Shown here: positions 1-10,396 of the stretch, in pieces
How positions within the stretch are numbered: position 1 is the stretch's first letter
Layout of the letters: each line of letters opens with the position of its first letter
Assembly (NCBI GenBank): GCA_963815095.1
Contig: CAWFFH010000003.1
Span: forward strand, 1,248,001 to 1,312,000
DNA length: 64,000 bases
From: Candidatus Bathyarchaeota archaeon
GTDB lineage: Archaea; Thermoproteota; Bathyarchaeia; Bathyarchaeales; Bathycorpusculaceae
Direction of reading: 5' to 3'
The notes under the pieces: model-generated
Databases searched by the model: none
Told to the model about the DNA's origin: nothing
Seen by the model: the letters and a program-made list of their open reading frames with translations, nothing else
Program-made: the position numbers and the translations under genes

Positions 1-357
1 CCTTTCGCCGCATGGAGCATCATACTTGGCACAATAGCAATAATTGGAATGCCCTTATCAGCGATTTTTCTGCCCAAACTTTCAATTCTTTTGCAATCTG
101 CCGAGTTGTCGCCCTATTTGCTCTTGGGGTTGCTAACAGTTTTCCTGTTTGTTGCCGGCGCATTTGGAGTCTTCCTGATTAAGTTGCTGTCCAAAAAAGA
201 AGAAGATGCTCCAGGAGTGACACGTTATGAAGCTTCGTTGGGCATGAAAATCCCAATCATAATCCTCCTGGTTACTGTTTTTGCTTTGGGAATATTCTTC
301 CCGCAGCAACTAACAAACTTACTCAATAGCATTGTGTCTGAATTGGGAATTAGGTGA
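1..357 (+). CDS. 3' part of a HyfF/NuoL-like proton-translocating membrane subunit of an Ehr complex (partial)
   Basis: Hydrophobic ORF open from the window edge (..AIIGMPLSAIF..); its stop overlaps the start of the large-subunit gene. Confidence 0.7.
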   Translation, partial: PFAAWSIILGTIAIIGMPLSAIFLPKLSILLQSAELSPYLLLGLLTVFLFVAGAFGVFLIKLLSKKEEDAPGVTRYEASLGMKIPIIILLVTVFALGIFFPQQLTNLLNSIVSELGIR

Positions 358-1922
358 CACAAATGAACCTGAACGAAGTACTCGAAATCTTATCTGGACA
401 AAAGCTCCCCTTAACTGAAGGGTTGAACTACGAACTTTATTTACCAATCAACGAATCCGACTTGCAAAAAGCCATAAACATCTTTGATGAAAATAGCTTT
501 GAACTCATTAGTCTATTCTGTGTTGAAAATTTTGCGGAAAAAGGATTCACACTTTTCTATGCCTTCGAGGTACCAGGTTTTGAGCAAATTCTGATTCTGC
601 AATACCTTTTAAGCGGTAATCAGGCAGTTTCTATCGCCAAAACTTATCCTTCTGCATGTTGGTACGAGCGGGAAATTGTTGATGGATTCGGAATAGAATT
701 CCAAGACGCCTTTGACAAAAGAAGATTGTTTCTACATGAGACGTATCCATTAGATTTTCATCCACTTTTGAAATCTTTCAAAAACGGTAAAATAGAAAAC
801 TCAACGCCTAACGACCAAAAAGAATACCTCTTTAAGCAGGTCGAGGGCGAAGGCGTCTACCAGATTCCAGTCGGACCAGTTCACGCGGGAATCATTGAGC
901 CTGGGCATTTCAGGTTCAGCGTCATTGGCGAGACCATCTTTAACTTGGAAGTGAGGCTTTTTTACAAGCACCGAGGATTAGAAAAACTCGCCGAAGGAAT
1001 GAAGCCTCAAGAATGCGTTCGAATTGCCGAAAGCATAAGTGGAGACGAAACGGTCGCTAACGTGGTCGCTTTCTGCATTGCGGTCGAGAAAATCTGCGGC
1101 TTGACATTGCCGAAAAGAGCTCTGCAATTAAGAACCATAATGCTGGAGCTTGAACGCATCTACTCTCACTTGGGCGATTTGGCAGGTATGTGCGTGGACG
1201 TGGCTTATCCTGTTGGCGCAAGCCCATTCTTCATTCTAAGGGAAGAAATTTTTAGGCAAAATGACACACTTACAGGTTCTAGATTCCTTAAAGGAATTGT
1301 CGGATTGGGAGGGTTAACTAAGGATGTTCCCGATGGCGCTCTCAAAAACCTCTCAACGTATTTTCTATCGTTTTCTGAGCGGCTAAATGTCGCCACAGGA
1401 ATCGACAGCACATACTTCTCAGTGGTTGACAGGTTTGAAACCACGGGTAAAGTTAAAACCGAAATTCTTTCACCTCTACATATTACTGGTCCAGTTGCGA
1501 GGGCTTCAGGCAAAATATCTGACAACCGAATCTCCCATCCATACGGAATATACAGAGAGTTAAAGTTGAAAGAAAGGACACAGACAAATGGAGATGTTCT
1601 TGCTCGATTCAACCTTAAAGCCAAAGAAGTTCTCGATTCCGTCAAAATTATTCAACACCTAATCAGCGAATTGGACAACGGCGAGATTTCTGTACTCTGT
1701 CAAATCAAAGATGGCCACTCGCTATCGTTGGTAGAGGCGCCAAGGGGACAGAATTTCCACTGGGTCAAAATCAAAAATGGCGCTATCGACCGCTTTAAAG
1801 TTCGGACAGCTTCTTTCTGCAACTGGCAAGCCATGGAACACGCGGTCCTTGGAAATATAGTTCCAGATTTCCCCCTAATTAACAAGAGCATGAACTTATC
1901 GTATGCAGGAACGGACATGTGA
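354..1922 (+). CDS. Ehr large subunit (NuoC-NuoD/HycE-like fusion) without NiFe ligands
   Basis: YEREI, GPVHAGIIEPGHFRF, HRGLEK, ELERIYSHL and EAPRG motifs; ESISGDE and DFPLINKSMNLSYAGTDM replace the two CxxC NiFe motifs. Confidence 0.9.
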   Translation: MTQMNLNEVLEILSGQKLPLTEGLNYELYLPINESDLQKAINIFDENSFELISLFCVENFAEKGFTLFYAFEVPGFEQILILQYLLSGNQAVSIAKTYPSACWYEREIVDGFGIEFQDAFDKRRLFLHETYPLDFHPLLKSFKNGKIENSTPNDQKEYLFKQVEGEGVYQIPVGPVHAGIIEPGHFRFSVIGETIFNLEVRLFYKHRGLEKLAEGMKPQECVRIAESISGDETVANVVAFCIAVEKICGLTLPKRALQLRTIMLELERIYSHLGDLAGMCVDVAYPVGASPFFILREEIFRQNDTLTGSRFLKGIVGLGGLTKDVPDGALKNLSTYFLSFSERLNVATGIDSTYFSVVDRFETTGKVKTEILSPLHITGPVARASGKISDNRISHPYGIYRELKLKERTQTNGDVLARFNLKAKEVLDSVKIIQHLISELDNGEISVLCQIKDGHSLSLVEAPRGQNFHWVKIKNGAIDRFKVRTASFCNWQAMEHAVLGNIVPDFPLINKSMNLSYAGTDM

Positions 1923-1926
1923 GACT

Positions 1927-2445
1927 ATGGCAAAAGCAATCTCTAATGTTTTCAAAAAACCCTCAACAGATACTTTCCAGTTTAAAGATGCAGAATTCGA
2001 AGCCCTCGGTATGCAGCTGAAGGAAACAGTGGATAAAGTTTTTGCCAGAAGCCTGGCTATTCGCGAATTAGACGCAGGCAGCGACAACTCAACTGAAATA
2101 GAACTCAATAACCTTTCAACCCCTTACTACGATGTTGAACGTTTCGGCATATTTTTCGTGGCTTCCCCCCGGCACGCTGACGTTCTCATCGTTACCGGCG
2201 TGGTCACTCTAAACATGGAAATTGCAGCAAAAAAAACATTCGAAGCCATGCCTAACCCAAAATTTGTTGTAGCCGTAGGCGACGATGCTTGCGGATATGG
2301 AATCATGAACAACTCTTACGCCGTGTTGGGAGGCGCCGACAAAATCTTTGACGTGGCTCTAAAAATTCCTGGTAATCCTCCATCTCCCCGAGAGATACTC
2401 AAAGGCATTCTTGCTCTCATGAGTGTTATAGAGAAAAGACCCTAA
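1927..2445 (+). CDS. Ehr small subunit (NuoB/HycG-like) with degenerate Fe-S ligands
   Basis: RSLAIRELDAGS, YDVERFGIFFVASPRHADVLIVTG, PKFVVAVGD and IPGNPP motifs; start taken at ATG 1927. Confidence 0.9.
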   Translation: MAKAISNVFKKPSTDTFQFKDAEFEALGMQLKETVDKVFARSLAIRELDAGSDNSTEIELNNLSTPYYDVERFGIFFVASPRHADVLIVTGVVTLNMEIAAKKTFEAMPNPKFVVAVGDDACGYGIMNNSYAVLGGADKIFDVALKIPGNPPSPREILKGILALMSVIEKRP

Positions 2446-2451
2446 AAACGC

Positions 2452-2490
2452 CTTTTTACGTTTAAAATAATTTTTTATTTTTTGTTTGCT
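2452..2490 (+). terminator. T-rich archaeal-type terminator of the Ehr operon
   Basis: Several oligo-T runs directly after the stop, between convergent genes. Confidence 0.5.
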
Positions 2491-2611
2491 AACCTTTAGA
2501 TCAGGCATGTAAATGCTTAGTTGCTGTTGTGGAAAGCCTGTGAAGCTATTAATAAACTCCACTTCCTTTCGAAGGGGTTTTTCAATCACCAAGTAGGGGC
2601 AGACTCGCCAT

Positions 2612-3043
2612 TTACCCTCGGTTGCCATAACTTTTGTTCATGCAATCCTGACAATAATTCCTCTTAAACCTCTTTATTCGCTTGGGCTGGAAGAGTTTTC
2701 CGCATGAACTGCACTTTATTTGGTTAACTGTTTTGGGATCCAGGAGTTTGAGTCGTCGTTCAATTTCGTTTTTAACGTCTGAATCGTTTTCACTTACCAA
2801 CGCATGGGTGAGTAGTGTTTTGGCTTGTTCTTCACTTTGTTCACCAAACATCTTGGAAAATACATTGTTCTTTTTCTGATCTACGCTTATCTGCGAAGGC
2901 AACATGCAGATAAAATTTGAAGGATAACTCTTCGATTTATCAGAATCAACCACGGCGAAACGGTAGTGCCTGCCTACATAGTTGCCCTCAATGTTATCTT
3001 GAGTAAATATCTGTAACTTGAACTTCATAACCTTCCCACGCAT
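2612..3043 (-). CDS. hypothetical protein with C-terminal C4 zinc ribbon
   Basis: CSSC...CQDC motif; the start may be at 3028. Confidence 0.75.
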   Translation of the reverse strand: MRGKVMKFKLQIFTQDNIEGNYVGRHYRFAVVDSDKSKSYPSNFICMLPSQISVDQKKNNVFSKMFGEQSEEQAKTLLTHALVSENDSDVKNEIERRLKLLDPKTVNQIKCSSCGKLFQPKRIKRFKRNYCQDCMNKSYGNRG

Positions 3044-3397: not shown

Positions 3398-4318
3398 TCA
3401 GTTAATTTTTGAGCTGTTTACTTTACCTATAGCTCTTTTGTGGTTGAATGCAGCCACAAGCTCTTTAAAGTTAACAACAATGAGCGCCAGCAAAGTGAAA
3501 AAGGGTATGTACGAGTAATAATAAAGAGGTGTGGTGAGCCCTGAACCAAAAATCATGCTCATGAACCCAGAGCCCAGGCCGGGGTAAAGAAGCATCAAAT
3601 TCGATAAAGCCAGCGCGGCTGCTACACTTGTCAATGCAAGCTTGAGGTTTTTGCGATTATACAAAATGAACAGAGGGATTGAAAGTAAACCAAATCTTAC
3701 GTCAAAGAACCCAAAAGCCAACACAATTCCCGACAGGACTGGTTTGCCTCTGCTACCCAGATAGAAGCTAAGGAGAAGCAAAAAAGTGAGGAAGACTTTA
3801 GCTTGCCCTTCGCCCCACTGCCAATAGTAACTTGGAGATAAACCCCAATTTGCGGTTGGAAAGGGCAGCAGTAAAGCGATAACCATGACTGTCATCGAGA
3901 TGGCAAGATGCTTATCCTCTAAGAGTTTGTAAAGCATGAACGCAATAATTGGAAGGAGCATGATTTGGATTATGTCAAATGATAGCAATGCTTGCTGATA
4001 ACTTAATAATAGAAGGGGCGAGGTGATGAAAAGGAAATTGGGAAGGTACTTGTATGCTTCAGGGTACGGTGGAGTGATTGGTTCTGCGCCGCCTAGGGCT
4101 CCGAAATGGTAAACCTGTGAGGGATTATTCCAGAGTCTCCAAGCGCCTACATAGTAGGCTGAAAAGTCTTTTGCTAATATGCTGCCTGAAGAAGTTATGC
4201 CTGGAGTAAGCGTGTAAGTTTCTGGATAAGCTACTGTGAAGGTGTATAGATTTAACGCAATGAGAACAGCGACACTGATAATTATGGCAGTTTGGCCTGG
4301 GCTTGGTTTTTTAGTCAT
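3398..4318 (-). CDS. GT87/DUF2029-like polytopic membrane glycosyltransferase (GT-C)
   Basis: DFSAYY, YKYLP and GQ motifs in a multi-TM protein. Confidence 0.7.
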   Translation of the reverse strand: MTKKPSPGQTAIIISVAVLIALNLYTFTVAYPETYTLTPGITSSGSILAKDFSAYYVGAWRLWNNPSQVYHFGALGGAEPITPPYPEAYKYLPNFLFITSPLLLLSYQQALLSFDIIQIMLLPIIAFMLYKLLEDKHLAISMTVMVIALLLPFPTANWGLSPSYYWQWGEGQAKVFLTFLLLLSFYLGSRGKPVLSGIVLAFGFFDVRFGLLSIPLFILYNRKNLKLALTSVAAALALSNLMLLYPGLGSGFMSMIFGSGLTTPLYYYSYIPFFTLLALIVVNFKELVAAFNHKRAIGKVNSSKIN

Positions 4319-7233: not shown

Positions 7234-8109
7234 ATGACAGAAAAACTCAAAGACCTCACAAAAGTTGACTTGAAAAACCTTGACAAAGTCTTCTACCCTA
7301 AAAACAATATAACCAAAGGGCAAGTTGTCGAATACTACATCAAACTCGCTCCAAAACTGCTCCCCCTCATAGCGGACCGCCCCTTAGTTTTGACAAGATA
7401 CCCTGACGGTATAGAAGGGGAAACGAAGAGTTTTTTTGCAAAAAACGCTCCCGAAGGCACCCCCAGCTGGGTTAAAACAAAAATCATCTACTCCTCCGCT
7501 TCAAAGCGGGACGTTTCCTATATCGTTTGTAATGACCTCGACACGCTTATTTGGCTAGCCAACTTGGCTGCGCTCGAAATTCACATGCCCTTCTCCAAGG
7601 TTGATGCCTTAGACAAGCCTGACCTGCTGTTCTTTGACGTTGACCCTGAACCGCCTGCTACTTTAAGCGACGCCGCAGAAGCCTCGCTACTGCTTAAAGA
7701 TAAACTTCTTGAATTAGGGCTCACACCGTACATTAAAACCTCGGGCAAAAAAGGCTTACACGTCGTAATCCCCATTGAACCCGAACATACCTTCGAGAAG
7801 ACTAGGGCTTTTGTACATAAAATAGGCGTCGAACTGGCAAAAGAAAGCGACATGATAGTTTCCGAATTCAAGGATACCAAGAAACCCGGCAAAGTTTTCG
7901 CCGACTACCTTCAGAATTCTCCCATGCGAACCATGGTGGTTCCTTACAGTTTGCGTCCTACGCCTGACGCTACTGTTTCCACACCTTTGGAATGGAGTGA
8001 GGTGAAGAAAGGCATAAACCCTTCGAACTACACTATTTTTAATGTAGCAAAACGGCTAAGTAATCCGTGGAAAGATATTTTTGAAAAAAGATGCAAATTG
8101 GAGATTTAA
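7234..8109 (+). CDS. ligD: NHEJ primase-polymerase (stand-alone LigD Pol domain)
   Basis: NLDKVFYP, RYPDGI, PDLLFFDVDP, KTSGKKGLHV, DYLQN and PYSLR motifs. Confidence 0.95.
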   Translation: MTEKLKDLTKVDLKNLDKVFYPKNNITKGQVVEYYIKLAPKLLPLIADRPLVLTRYPDGIEGETKSFFAKNAPEGTPSWVKTKIIYSSASKRDVSYIVCNDLDTLIWLANLAALEIHMPFSKVDALDKPDLLFFDVDPEPPATLSDAAEASLLLKDKLLELGLTPYIKTSGKKGLHVVIPIEPEHTFEKTRAFVHKIGVELAKESDMIVSEFKDTKKPGKVFADYLQNSPMRTMVVPYSLRPTPDATVSTPLEWSEVKKGINPSNYTIFNVAKRLSNPWKDIFEKRCKLEI

Positions 8110-8111
8110 TT

Positions 8112-8939
8112 ATGGAAGAACAAGAAAATGTAGAAGAATCCTCTTCTGAAAAAACCAGTGCTTCTGCCCCCAGCAGGTCTATTTGGTCAGGAAACATTAC
8201 TATCGGCTTGGTGAATGTTCCCGTCAAATTGTTCTCGATGATTTACGATAAGGGCATAGCATTTCATTTTTTGCATAAAACTGATGGTCAACCCTTAAAA
8301 TACGTTAAAATGTGCACCAAAGACGACAAGATAGTGCCGTGGAATGAGGTTGTTCGGGGCTACGAAGTTGCCAAAAACGAATACATCACCTTCGACCAAA
8401 AAGAACTCAACGAGGCAAAACCCGAATCTGATAAACGCATCCGTATCAGCAAGTTTGTCGATTACTTTTCGGTAGATCCCGTTTATTTTGACCGAACCTA
8501 CGCTTTGTTGCCTGATAAGAGTAAAGACGCCTACGGATTGCTGCTTAAGGCGCTTGAGAAAACTAACAAGGCTGGTGCTGGACGCATAACCCTGCGAACT
8601 AAAGAGTATCCCGCGTTGCTGCATACCTACAAAGGCGCATTAGTTCTTACAACATTACGTTATGCCTACGACGTTGTGAATCCCGCAGATTTTGAACCCC
8701 TCCACAAACTTGAAACCCCCCAAAAAACAGAATTAGATCTTGCCGTAAGAATCGTTGCTGACCTCTCTGGCGAATTTGACATAACAGACTTCAAAGACAC
8801 TTACATGGAAAGAGTACAAGAACTCGTAAAGCAAAAGGTGAAGGGTGAAAAAGTCCATATCGAAAAGCCTCCAGAAGTCGAAGCGAAAGGTCTTATGGTT
8901 GCCCTGCGGGAAACCCTCAAGCAGTTGGAGCAGAAATGA
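8112..8939 (+). CDS. ku: NHEJ DNA end-binding protein Ku
   Basis: RSIWSGNITIGLVNVPVKL, VVRGYE, DPVYFDRTY and LMVALRETL motifs. Confidence 0.95.
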   Translation: MEEQENVEESSSEKTSASAPSRSIWSGNITIGLVNVPVKLFSMIYDKGIAFHFLHKTDGQPLKYVKMCTKDDKIVPWNEVVRGYEVAKNEYITFDQKELNEAKPESDKRIRISKFVDYFSVDPVYFDRTYALLPDKSKDAYGLLLKALEKTNKAGAGRITLRTKEYPALLHTYKGALVLTTLRYAYDVVNPADFEPLHKLETPQKTELDLAVRIVADLSGEFDITDFKDTYMERVQELVKQKVKGEKVHIEKPPEVEAKGLMVALRETLKQLEQK

Positions 8940-10396
8940 GTCGCCACATCTACCAGCCTATGCTTGCAAAGGTTGTCGAGGAAGCTTTTTCGGATAAGGA
9001 CTGGGTTTTTGAGGTTAAATGGGATGGGTTCCGCGCAATCGCCTACGTAGAACAACCTTTCAGCCTCAAAAGCCGAAATGAGAAGGAACTAAAACAAAAT
9101 TTTCCTGAACTTCAGGAATTAAACAAGCTTGCCAGCAACATTGTCGTGGACGGCGAAATCGTGGTTATGCGGGAAGGCAAACCCGACTTCCAATCCTTAT
9201 TGGAACGCGGACAGGCGGTTTCGACAAGAGAAATCCAACGACAAGAGGATCGTGCTCCCGCTGTCTACATCGTTTTTGACATATTGGAAAAAGATGGCAA
9301 ATCTCTAACCAAATTGCCTCTGATGAAGCGCAAAGCAATCCTCAAAGACTCCTTGAAGGAGGGCTCAAACGTGCTTTTATGTGATTTTATAGAGGAAAAA
9401 GGCGAATCTTACTTCAAGTTGGCGTTGGAGAAGGGTTTGGAGGGAGTTGTGGCAAAGAGGAAGGACAGTGAGTATGAGGAAGGTTTGCGTACTGGGAGTT
9501 GGTTGAAGATTAAGAAACTCAAAACTTGTGACTGCGTAATTTTTGGTTATACTCGGGGGGAGGCGATTAGGGCAAAAACTTTTGGTGCCTTACTGCTTGG
9601 TGTTTATGATAACGAGGGTAAACCTGTCTATGTTGGTAAAGTTGGCACAGGTTTTACTCAGCAGATGATTGGAGTTTTATCGGATAAATTTAAGAAAATA
9701 AAGACAGATGTTGCCCCGTTTAAGCCTGAAGCTGGCGACGTTGTGACTTGGCTTGAGCCCAAACTTGTCTGCGAAGTAGCTTATCAAGTATTAACGAGGG
9801 ACTTGAGGTTGCGTATGGCACGTTTTAAACGGTTAAGAGATGACAAACCGCCTGAACAATGCACAATTGACCAAATAATCGAAAGCAAACAAAAAGAAGT
9901 CGCATCCCCTGAACAAAAAAGCGATGCAAAGGAAAAAGATGTGGATCAAAAGCTATCTGAATACGCAGCAAAAAGGCATTTTGAAGAAACCCCCGAACCC
10001 AAAGGCGCCCCAGAGAAAGAAGGCGACAAACTCATCTATGTAATCCAAGAACACCATGCAAGGCGACTGCACTATGATTTTAGGTTGGAAAAAGACGGTG
10101 TCCTCAAAAGCTGGGCAGTCCCAAAAGGGATGCCTGAAGCTGGGCAAAAGGTTTTGGCGGTGGAAACCGAAGACCACCCATACGAATACGGAAGTTTTGA
10201 AGGCGAAATCCCAAAAGGACAGTATGGCGCGGGAACCGTGAAAATCTGGGACAAAGGAACCTACGAAACCAAACTTTGGGAGAGCGACAAAATCGAAATC
10301 ACTCTAAACGGAAAACGGCTTAAGAGTCGCTATGTTTTGGTGCGCCTAAAGCGCGCTGGCGACAAAGATTGGCTGCTGTTGAAAGGAAAAGAATAG
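8936..10396 (+). CDS. ligD: ATP-dependent NHEJ DNA ligase fused to a C-terminal 3'-phosphoesterase domain
   Basis: Ligase motifs EVKWDGFRA, DGEIV, FDIL, EGVVAK, WLKIK; phosphoesterase motifs QEHHARRLHYDFRLE, SWAVPKG, EDHP, YGAG. Confidence 0.95.
   Translation: MSRHIYQPMLAKVVEEAFSDKDWVFEVKWDGFRAIAYVEQPFSLKSRNEKELKQNFPELQELNKLASNIVVDGEIVVMREGKPDFQSLLERGQAVSTREIQRQEDRAPAVYIVFDILEKDGKSLTKLPLMKRKAILKDSLKEGSNVLLCDFIEEKGESYFKLALEKGLEGVVAKRKDSEYEEGLRTGSWLKIKKLKTCDCVIFGYTRGEAIRAKTFGALLLGVYDNEGKPVYVGKVGTGFTQQMIGVLSDKFKKIKTDVAPFKPEAGDVVTWLEPKLVCEVAYQVLTRDLRLRMARFKRLRDDKPPEQCTIDQIIESKQKEVASPEQKSDAKEKDVDQKLSEYAAKRHFEETPEPKGAPEKEGDKLIYVIQEHHARRLHYDFRLEKDGVLKSWAVPKGMPEAGQKVLAVETEDHPYEYGSFEGEIPKGQYGAGTVKIWDKGTYETKLWESDKIEITLNGKRLKSRYVLVRLKRAGDKDWLLLKGKE

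Follow-up and report, generated by a model that had tools for sequence, protein, structure and literature searches.

The first 2,445 positions of a 64,000-nucleotide stretch of DNA from Candidatus Bathyarchaeota archaeon (contig CAWFFH010000003.1, positions 1,248,001 to 1,312,000 of the forward strand; the whole stretch is referred to as the window) contain ehrL and ehrS, the final two genes of an ehrABCDLS-type operon in this Bathyarchaeia genome. As judged from its sequence, the Ehr complex encoded by the operon has no site that can be recognised as binding NiFe or an Fe-S cluster of any kind. Purifying selection is strong on each of the six ehr genes. The Ehr (Ech-related, energy-converting-hydrogenase-related) family is already known; the clade found here is a selected, cofactor-poor variant of it. 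A sequence-only reading of the window had proposed the loss of these metal ligands. The loss is borne out by the comparisons below. It is not rare: it marks a large clade present in many anaerobic archaea and in some bacteria, and other branches of the Ehr family show similar losses.

Former metal sites of EhrS and EhrL and their operon

EhrS was aligned to E. coli HycG (7z0s_G), its best solved relative (E 4e-26), to bovine PSST and to the genome's own canonical NuoB-like paralogue, with which it is 46% identical. The four cysteines that ligate the [4Fe-4S] cluster align with D61, T64, D128 and N158 of EhrS, while the flanking SPRHAD and PGxPP motifs are intact. All four ligands are thus replaced, as the sequence-only reading had it, namely: D61 (GAC) and T64 (ACT) at the first two ligand positions, in GSDNST vs. 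the canonical GSCNGC (2083..2094, + strand); D128 (GAT) at the third, with D127 before it and C130 after it in GDDAC (2281..2292, +); and N158 (AAT) at the fourth, in IPGNPP vs. the canonical PGCPP (2374..2376, +). The codons are those given earlier, each being two bases away from TGT or TGC, and a sequencing error is excluded by the presence of identical substitutions in 61 loci from independent assemblies.

The only cysteine noted in the earlier reading, which took it for a ligand shifted by two residues, is indeed there, as C130, two residues beyond the third ligand position. It is not a displaced ligand, however, because a cysteine stands at the same position in the NuoB-like paralogue and in 13 of the 15 related loci with a four-Cys small subunit. 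The one conserved histidine of EhrS, H91, lies in SPRHAD, a motif that the paralogue carries too, as do the solved relatives in the alignment.

The large subunit EhrL, whose best solved relative is HycE (7z0s_E, E 1e-62), has no NiFe cysteines, again in agreement with what had been read from the window. In alignments to HycE and to the paralogue, both hydrogenase motifs are replaced: L1 reads SISGDETVAN for RxCGxCxxxH, so that S229-G230-D231-E232 (1038..1049, +) stands at the C-G-x-C of hydrogenases, and L2 reads NLSYAG for DPCxxC, in which N514-L-S516-Y-A-G519 (1893..1910, +) stands at D-P-C-x-x-C. The four NiFe-ligating positions are therefore S229, E232, S516 and G519. SGDE is invariant in all 49 clade rows of the alignment, with D231 and E232 conserved in at least 95%, and the SGD and N-x-SY-[AS]-G motifs are common to the NiFe-less large subunits of loci that have a four-Cys small subunit.

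The window starts within the operon, with the 3′ end of a membrane-protein gene followed by open reading frames (ORFs) at 354-1922 and 1903-2445. The first of these three genes is ehrD (1..357, +; Pfam Proton_antipo_M), which encodes the second of the antiporter-like membrane subunits (NuoM/N-, HyfF-like). The complete protein has 491 amino acids, starts upstream of the window (locus L003, 14882-16357) and matches NCBIfam NF006427 ‘hydrogenase membrane subunit’ at 598 bits against a cut-off of 511. The next gene, ehrL (354..1922, +), encodes a fused NuoC/NuoD-like (HycE-like) large subunit of 522 amino acids with the Pfam domains Complex1_30kDa (PF00329), Complex1_49kDa (PF00346) and NiFeSe_Hases (PF00374), while ehrS (1903..2445, +) encodes a NuoB/HycG-like small subunit of 180 amino acids that matches PF01058 (Oxidored_q6) alone. 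An alternative ATG of ehrS at 1927 gives a 172-residue form, which is the one in the protein database. Among the NCBIfam models EhrL is nearest to NuoD/NuoCD and EhrS to NuoB, all under the curated cut-offs.

The other three genes lie in the DNA upstream of the window (L003), namely: ehrA, encoding a NuoL/HyfB-like protein of 646 amino acids (Proton_antipo_M/N; above the cut-off of NCBIfam NF006418 ‘hydrogenase membrane subunit’); ehrB, encoding a NuoH/HycD-like protein of 318 amino acids (NADHdh; best solved relative HycD); and ehrC, encoding a HyfE-like protein of 238 amino acids without a Pfam match and below the cut-off of NF008556. The six genes are on one strand, overlapping or closely packed, in the order ehrA, ehrB, ehrC, ehrD, ehrL, ehrS, with a divergent pyruvate kinase gene upstream. 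The proposed link to membrane subunits is thus kept, in the form of two antiporter-like, one NuoH-like and one HyfE-like gene.

The sequence-only reading had also called for the upstream operon to be inspected for Fe-S subunits. Pfam finds no Fer4/ferredoxin domain in any of the six operon proteins, which include the four upstream ones, and the absence of a fused ferredoxin domain from EhrS is likewise confirmed. In clade-wide alignments of the operon proteins (46-58 rows each) there is no conserved cysteine cluster; the conserved cysteines are C130 alone in EhrS, four scattered ones in EhrL (80-94%) and two invariant ones in the C-terminal part of EhrA.

Alignment indicates that the membrane subunits retain the Glu, Lys and His residues that carry ions in complex I, in MBH (membrane-bound hydrogenase) and in Mrp antiporters. 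When EhrA (best solved relative HycC, E 1e-73) is compared with HycC, MbhH and MrpA, it keeps E144 in transmembrane helix (TM) 5, K221 and H228 in TM7, K252 in TM8, H344/K348 in TM11 and E403 in TM12, the last being Glu as in HycC; all of these are at least 95% conserved in the clade. EhrD retains E138, K225, H232, K344 and K399, of which Glu138, Lys225, Lys344 and Lys399 reach at least 95%, and EhrB (HycD, E 1e-41) retains the HycD-type Glu/Asp run. The fold of EhrS is kept according to an AlphaFold model built from a 32-row alignment, with a predicted local distance difference score (pLDDT) of 80.7 and a predicted template modelling score of 0.74. The model superimposes on MbhJ (6cfw_J) with a root-mean-square deviation of 2.5 Å over 136 columns; its confidence is low at residues 18-25 and in the cluster-wrapping loop 61-64, where pLDDT is below 50.

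Conservation, selection and recurrent cysteine loss

That a Cys-less clade is conserved was first seen among the best 120 database homologues of EhrS, which are 71-100% identical to it: D61 is present in 120 of the 120, D127 in 118, D128 in 119, C130 in 120 and N158 in 117. Position 64 varies in the same set (T in 74, A in 24, V in 21 and I in one). A locus scan with one genome per species yielded 80 related loci, 61 of which show a D-x-D/E-N/D pattern. In these 61 clade loci D61 is found in 61/61, D128 and C130 each in 60/61 and N158 in 58/61, the three exceptions at N158 being two Asp and one position beyond the contig end. Archaeal hosts of the clade are Bathyarchaeia, Methanosarcina (including cultured strains), Methanoregula and other Methanomicrobiales; further hosts are bins labelled Altiarchaeales, Aenigmatarchaeota and Nanoarchaeota, as well as Dehalococcoidia/Chloroflexia.

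The remaining loci differ at the ligand positions. Four of the 80, from Scalindua, two Patescibacteria and a member of the Syntrophaceae, have a different Cys-poor pattern, and in three of these four, where the contig contains the remaining operon, the small-subunit gene comes first. The other 15, from Gammaproteobacteria and Bradyrhizobium, retain all four small-subunit cysteines, and the large subunits recovered from such four-Cys loci (11 rows) are likewise NiFe-less.

The gene order ABCDLS, which Bathyarchaeia, methanogens and Dehalococcoidia have in common, is complete in 51 of the 61 clade loci, with a contig end cutting 7 more. Among the others, L042 has ehrB within an over-long ORF, and L044 and L061 have no membrane genes upstream. 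In L044 (10001-10522; an Altiarchaeales bin) a D-x-D-N small-subunit gene has none of its five usual partners upstream, and in L061 (8397-10546; a Dehalococcoidia genome) ehrL and ehrS alone are preceded by 8 kb of unrelated DNA; either a split operon or an assembly or binning fault would account for these two. In L009, L010, L018, L022, L024, L036, L042, L058 and L063, mostly long-read metagenome bins of the MFD series, ehr genes are broken into two to four ORFs. As neighbouring relatives are intact, these breaks are probably indel errors and not pseudogenes.

Selection on the genes was estimated from pairwise ratios of nonsynonymous to synonymous substitution rates (dN/dS). For the six genes against seven relatives the values are 0.040-0.136 in the 41 of 42 pairs that could be computed, the last pair having a saturated dS; both ehrL and ehrS range from 0.06 to 0.13. 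Selection is thus purifying and not relaxed, and close relatives do not keep the cysteines; the sequence-only reading had named the opposite outcomes as refuting it. Among 120 further genomes sampled from the class, including 3 from the genus itself, none yielded a close homologue. This survey shows patchiness among the genomes searched and not a class-wide absence; the operon is therefore accessory and patchy. The archaeal and Dehalococcoidia copies are 59-68% identical, and patchiness together with this cross-domain identity would fit lateral transfer.

In order to place the clade within the family, EhrS was scored against 1.84 billion cluster representatives and the best 150 were kept, of which 132 have letters in all four ligand columns. 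Four cysteines occupy the ligand positions in 92 of these 132, three in 12, two in 3, one in 5 and none in 20. The premise of the sequence-only reading that Ehr small subunits keep four cysteines therefore holds for part of the family only, namely for these 92 representatives and for the 15 of 80 loci described above. Of the 25 representatives with at most one cysteine, 18 carry two or three Asp/Glu at the four positions, and where position 3 is Gly, position 2 is mostly Glu; such replacement patterns suggest that the ligand pocket tends to remain acidic.

In a FastTree phylogeny built from 210 rows, the query falls within a D-x-D-N clade of 63 tips (support 1.0). Beside it are a Patescibacteria/Scalindua clade and an N/S-E-G-D clade, and a separate 10-tip D-x-D-S/D clade is nested amid cysteine-bearing sequences. 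An approximately unbiased test was run on 52 hand-picked rows with the ligand columns removed (96 of 148 rows were left out, all Cys-poor groups and their neighbours being kept). A single clade of all Cys-poor rows is rejected (log-likelihood difference 138.6, p 0.0002), and when only the D-x-D-N and D-x-D-S groups are united, p is 0.012, for a group that was defined post hoc from the tree. Minimum-change counts of 13 and 14 come from poorly resolved trees and are not taken as event numbers. With many forks unsupported, we limit the claim to what these sequences indicate, namely that cysteine loss happened more than once in the Ehr family.

Genomic surroundings and other systems in the genome

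Neighbouring genes were compared by clustering 520 flanking ORFs from the 61 clade loci. No conserved partner gene emerged, as no flanking family occurs in more than 11 of the 61 loci. Some of the larger families reflect lineage synteny, such as a GT87 glycosyltransferase and, in Methanoregula, a ferredoxin-thioredoxin reductase/rubredoxin and a ferritin; the others are generic histidine-kinase or ABC-ATPase domains joined across taxa. A conserved neighbour gene was accordingly rejected. Downstream of ehrS in the window are a small protein that has two CxxC pairs and belongs to no Pfam family (2612-3043, −) and a GT87-like membrane glycosyltransferase marginally under the Pfam cut-off (3398-4318, −), both with conservation limited to the closest Bathyarchaeia relatives.

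A fluoride link was also rejected for the D-x-D-N clade. The fluoride riboswitch RF01734 has no match at E ≤ 1 in the 19-kb ehr locus and none at the gathering score in 23 related loci (about 407 kb). The genome's sole copy (38 bits; G000:C3:925623-926069) lies directly upstream of crcB, some 320 kb away.

The genome encodes a second complex-I-type operon (L004 9436-19000; G000:C7, about 87.4-97 kb) with NuoA-, B-, CD-, H-, I-, J-, K-, L-, M- and N-like genes. Its NuoCD-like subunit retains the [NiFe] motifs RICGICNSIH and DPCFSCTDR, and its NuoB-like subunit, the paralogue used above, retains four cysteines; the operon may thus specify a [NiFe] hydrogenase with a full nuo-type membrane arm. 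HypD is present in the genome, away from this operon. A third NuoCD-like gene (L089 1270-2883, −; G000:C6) has intact NiFe motifs and an in-frame TGA, with no nuo-type genes in the surrounding 3.5 kb. Since the paralogue has Trp at the TGA (LFQYF-W-RDREP), a nonsense change or a base error is likelier there than selenocysteine, which we disfavour.

Further along the window, an archaeal cluster for non-homologous end joining (7234-10396) comprises a LigD primase-polymerase, Ku and an ATP-dependent ligase fused to a LigD 3′-phosphoesterase, and is followed by DUF72, HD and metallo-beta-lactamase-fold genes. No RNA runs are listed as containing window positions 1-2600; four soil DNA runs of one study hold about 0.26-0.32 of the words sampled from that interval.

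Relation to known complexes and proposed function

Published ehrABCDLS operons include GSU0739-45 of Geobacter sulfurreducens and Mhun_1817-1822 of Methanospirillum hungatei, with the same six gene types in the same order (PMC7894505, PMC4704411). Published Ehr large subunits lack the NiFe CxxC motifs, as here (PMC6349859, PMC10284858), and Ehr complexes are described as being without these motifs and of unknown or possibly electron-transferring function (PMC6349859, PMC10284858, PMC7304191, PMC4378227, PMC4758237, PMC10432482); a role in pH homeostasis has been suggested (PMC6688271). The present clade differs from these descriptions in that the cluster ligands of the small subunit are lost too; the likeness to Geobacter and M. 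hungatei noted here is one of gene types and gene order. In the portions of the open literature available to us we found no explicit description of such a loss, which the founding papers (Coppi 2005; Marreiros 2013) may cover.

Among solved structures, E. coli formate hydrogenlyase/hydrogenase-4 (Hyc/Hyf; PDB 7Z0S) provides the best relatives of EhrL, EhrS, EhrA and EhrB, and EhrC is HyfE-like. Hyc/Hyf have a NiFe site, a proximal cluster and the ferredoxin-like HycB/HycF, none of which the Ehr operon has. In MBH of Pyrococcus furiosus (PDB 6CFW), the subunit structurally closest to the EhrS model is MbhJ, with MbhH aligning to EhrA and EhrD, MbhL to EhrL and MbhM to EhrB; unlike the Ehr complex described here, MBH has three [4Fe-4S] clusters, NiFe and an Mrp-type Na+ module (PMC8165549). 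The homologous B, C/D, H and L/M/N modules are shared with complex I and with the genome's nuo-like operon, but relative to complex I the Ehr complex is without cluster N2, NuoI and separate NuoA/J/K genes. Mrp antiporters (CPA3; PDB 6Z16, 7QRU) have two MrpA/MrpD-like subunits with a TM5 Glu, a TM7 Lys and a TM12 Lys/Glu, as in EhrA and EhrD. Unlike Ehr, they have no homologues of NuoB, C, D or H, and the small Mrp subunits MrpB, C, E, F and G are not among the operon genes; the genome, which is 98% complete, yields no match to PF03334 (MnhG), the other small subunits having been searched for in the operon.

Mrp works without redox input, and so would Ehr under the explanation that we favour, to which we give about an even chance: that the complex is a redox-independent cation/proton translocator whose cap has a structural or switching role through two acidic pockets. 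In such a complex, ions would move without electron transfer, either as in an Mrp-like antiporter or through a gated path, and the L-S cap would be more than ballast. The former cluster pocket would have become a selected acidic one, made up of D61, D127, D128 and N158 with C130 adjacent, and the former NiFe site would contribute the invariant D231/E232. These acidic sites would most likely bind a cation or protons, or build a fixed charge network, and in this way would take on the part, structural or switching, that is played by the cluster and the active site of redox enzymes. There is a precedent for this mode of action in the report that deactive mammalian complex I is a Na+/H+ antiporter (PMC3464577). 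The sequence-only reading had likewise suggested a redox-silent or differently ligated module, possibly repurposed for ion/solute transport or non-redox chemistry; redox silence and a transport role are both best kept as inference from the sequence.

Several points weigh against this explanation. The absence of canonical ligands would not by itself prove the absence of a cofactor. The strong conservation of the former active-site pockets, together with the HycE-like ‘GPVHAGIIEPGHFRF’ loop, agrees with a role in catalysis or sensing no less than with that of a passive antiporter cap. EhrD has Ser at the position of the TM8 Lys of MbhH and MbsH. The genome encodes at least 4 CPA-type Na+/H+ exchangers, so that a simple housekeeping antiporter is not obviously needed, and the operon is accessory, not having been found in the 120 sampled genomes of its class.

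A more specific proposal for the cap, which we regard as rather doubtful, is that the carboxylate pocket (D61, D127/D128 and N158, with C130) is a charge mimic, or a proton or cation sensor, that replaces cluster N2. A four-thiolate [4Fe-4S] centre has a net charge of about −2 to −3, and convergence on two or three carboxylates at these four ligand positions is seen in Ehr lineages that became Cys-less independently.

Alternatively, the complex could still be a redox enzyme, with redox-driven translocation as in Ech/MBH. The Asp/Asp/Asn/Cys pocket would then hold an unconventional metal centre, such as a mononuclear Fe/Mn/Zn site or a cluster with odd ligation, or the electron partner would be encoded in trans. 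The replaced positions are invariant and not drifting, a metal could plausibly be ligated by carboxylates, an amide and one thiol, and the ancestor probably handled electrons, since sister Ehr lineages (15 of the 80 loci) keep the four cysteines beside a NiFe-less large subunit. The M. hungatei genome paper treats ehrABCDLS as hydrogenase-type, a complex that ‘likely reduce[s] Fd’ (PMC4704411). We nevertheless consider this explanation unlikely. In EhrS, Cys and His are each conserved at a single position, and no cubane with one Cys and carboxylates as its ligands is known to us; ligand position 2 is freely variable (T/A/V/P); the operon has no NuoI/HycF-type ferredoxin subunit; and the 61 loci share no conserved redox neighbour. 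The cap might instead catalyse a non-redox reaction coupled to ion movement, for example the interconversion of CO2 and bicarbonate or some other hydration or hydrolysis step. The two former metal pockets are acidic and strongly conserved, and by dN/dS the peripheral genes are constrained like the membrane genes. An analogy is provided by the DAB and cyanobacterial Cup systems, in which NuoL-like subunits couple to carbonic-anhydrase-like proteins. The clade, however, has no conserved neighbour of the carbonic-anhydrase type and no evident His/Cys zinc-type triad, and the domain matches suggest no substrate, which leaves this alternative improbable as well.

It is very unlikely that the complex serves in a fluoride stress response by adjusting the pH gradient and so lowering fluoride accumulation, as would the riboswitch-controlled ‘formate hydrogen lyase’-type operons of many bacteria. 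The crcB (fluoride) motif has been reported upstream of ‘formate hydrogen lyase’ genes (PMC2864571), but RF01734 has no match in the operon's locus or in the 23 related loci scanned, and the only genomic copy precedes crcB. Finally, there is next to no chance that the genes are decaying remnants or an artefact of sequencing or assembly, as the missing ligands and the split genes of some long-read-bin loci could suggest: the frames are open, overlapping and translationally coupled, and the conservation among homologues, the same substitutions in 61 loci from independent assemblies and dN/dS values of 0.04-0.14 refute it. The remaining probability goes to functions other than those listed.

For complex I and related machines there is as yet no settled account of how the chemistry of the peripheral arm and ion translocation in the membrane arm are coupled. 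A 2021 review states that detailed mechanisms for the superfamily are still lacking and that all its complexes carry a chain of three [4Fe-4S] clusters (PMC8165549). In the clade described here the whole coupling architecture, i.e. the NuoB/C/D cap, the NuoH-type channel and the two antiporter-like subunits, is under strong selection without a recognisable redox centre. The clade thus offers a test case that is both natural and minimal, in which the architecture either can run on non-redox inputs or has a cap with an overlooked role. If protonation or cation binding at the EhrS pocket and D231/E232 does switch the NuoH-type channel, Ehr would be a natural complex-I-type machine with non-redox charge gating or drive. 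Since cultured Methanosarcina strains hold members of the clade, the question is experimentally accessible. Routine annotation labels the clade genes ‘Ni,Fe-hydrogenase III small subunit’ or ‘NADH-quinone oxidoreductase subunit B’, and metabolic reconstructions of Bathyarchaeia and methanogens should not assign hydrogenase or NADH dehydrogenase activity to the clade.

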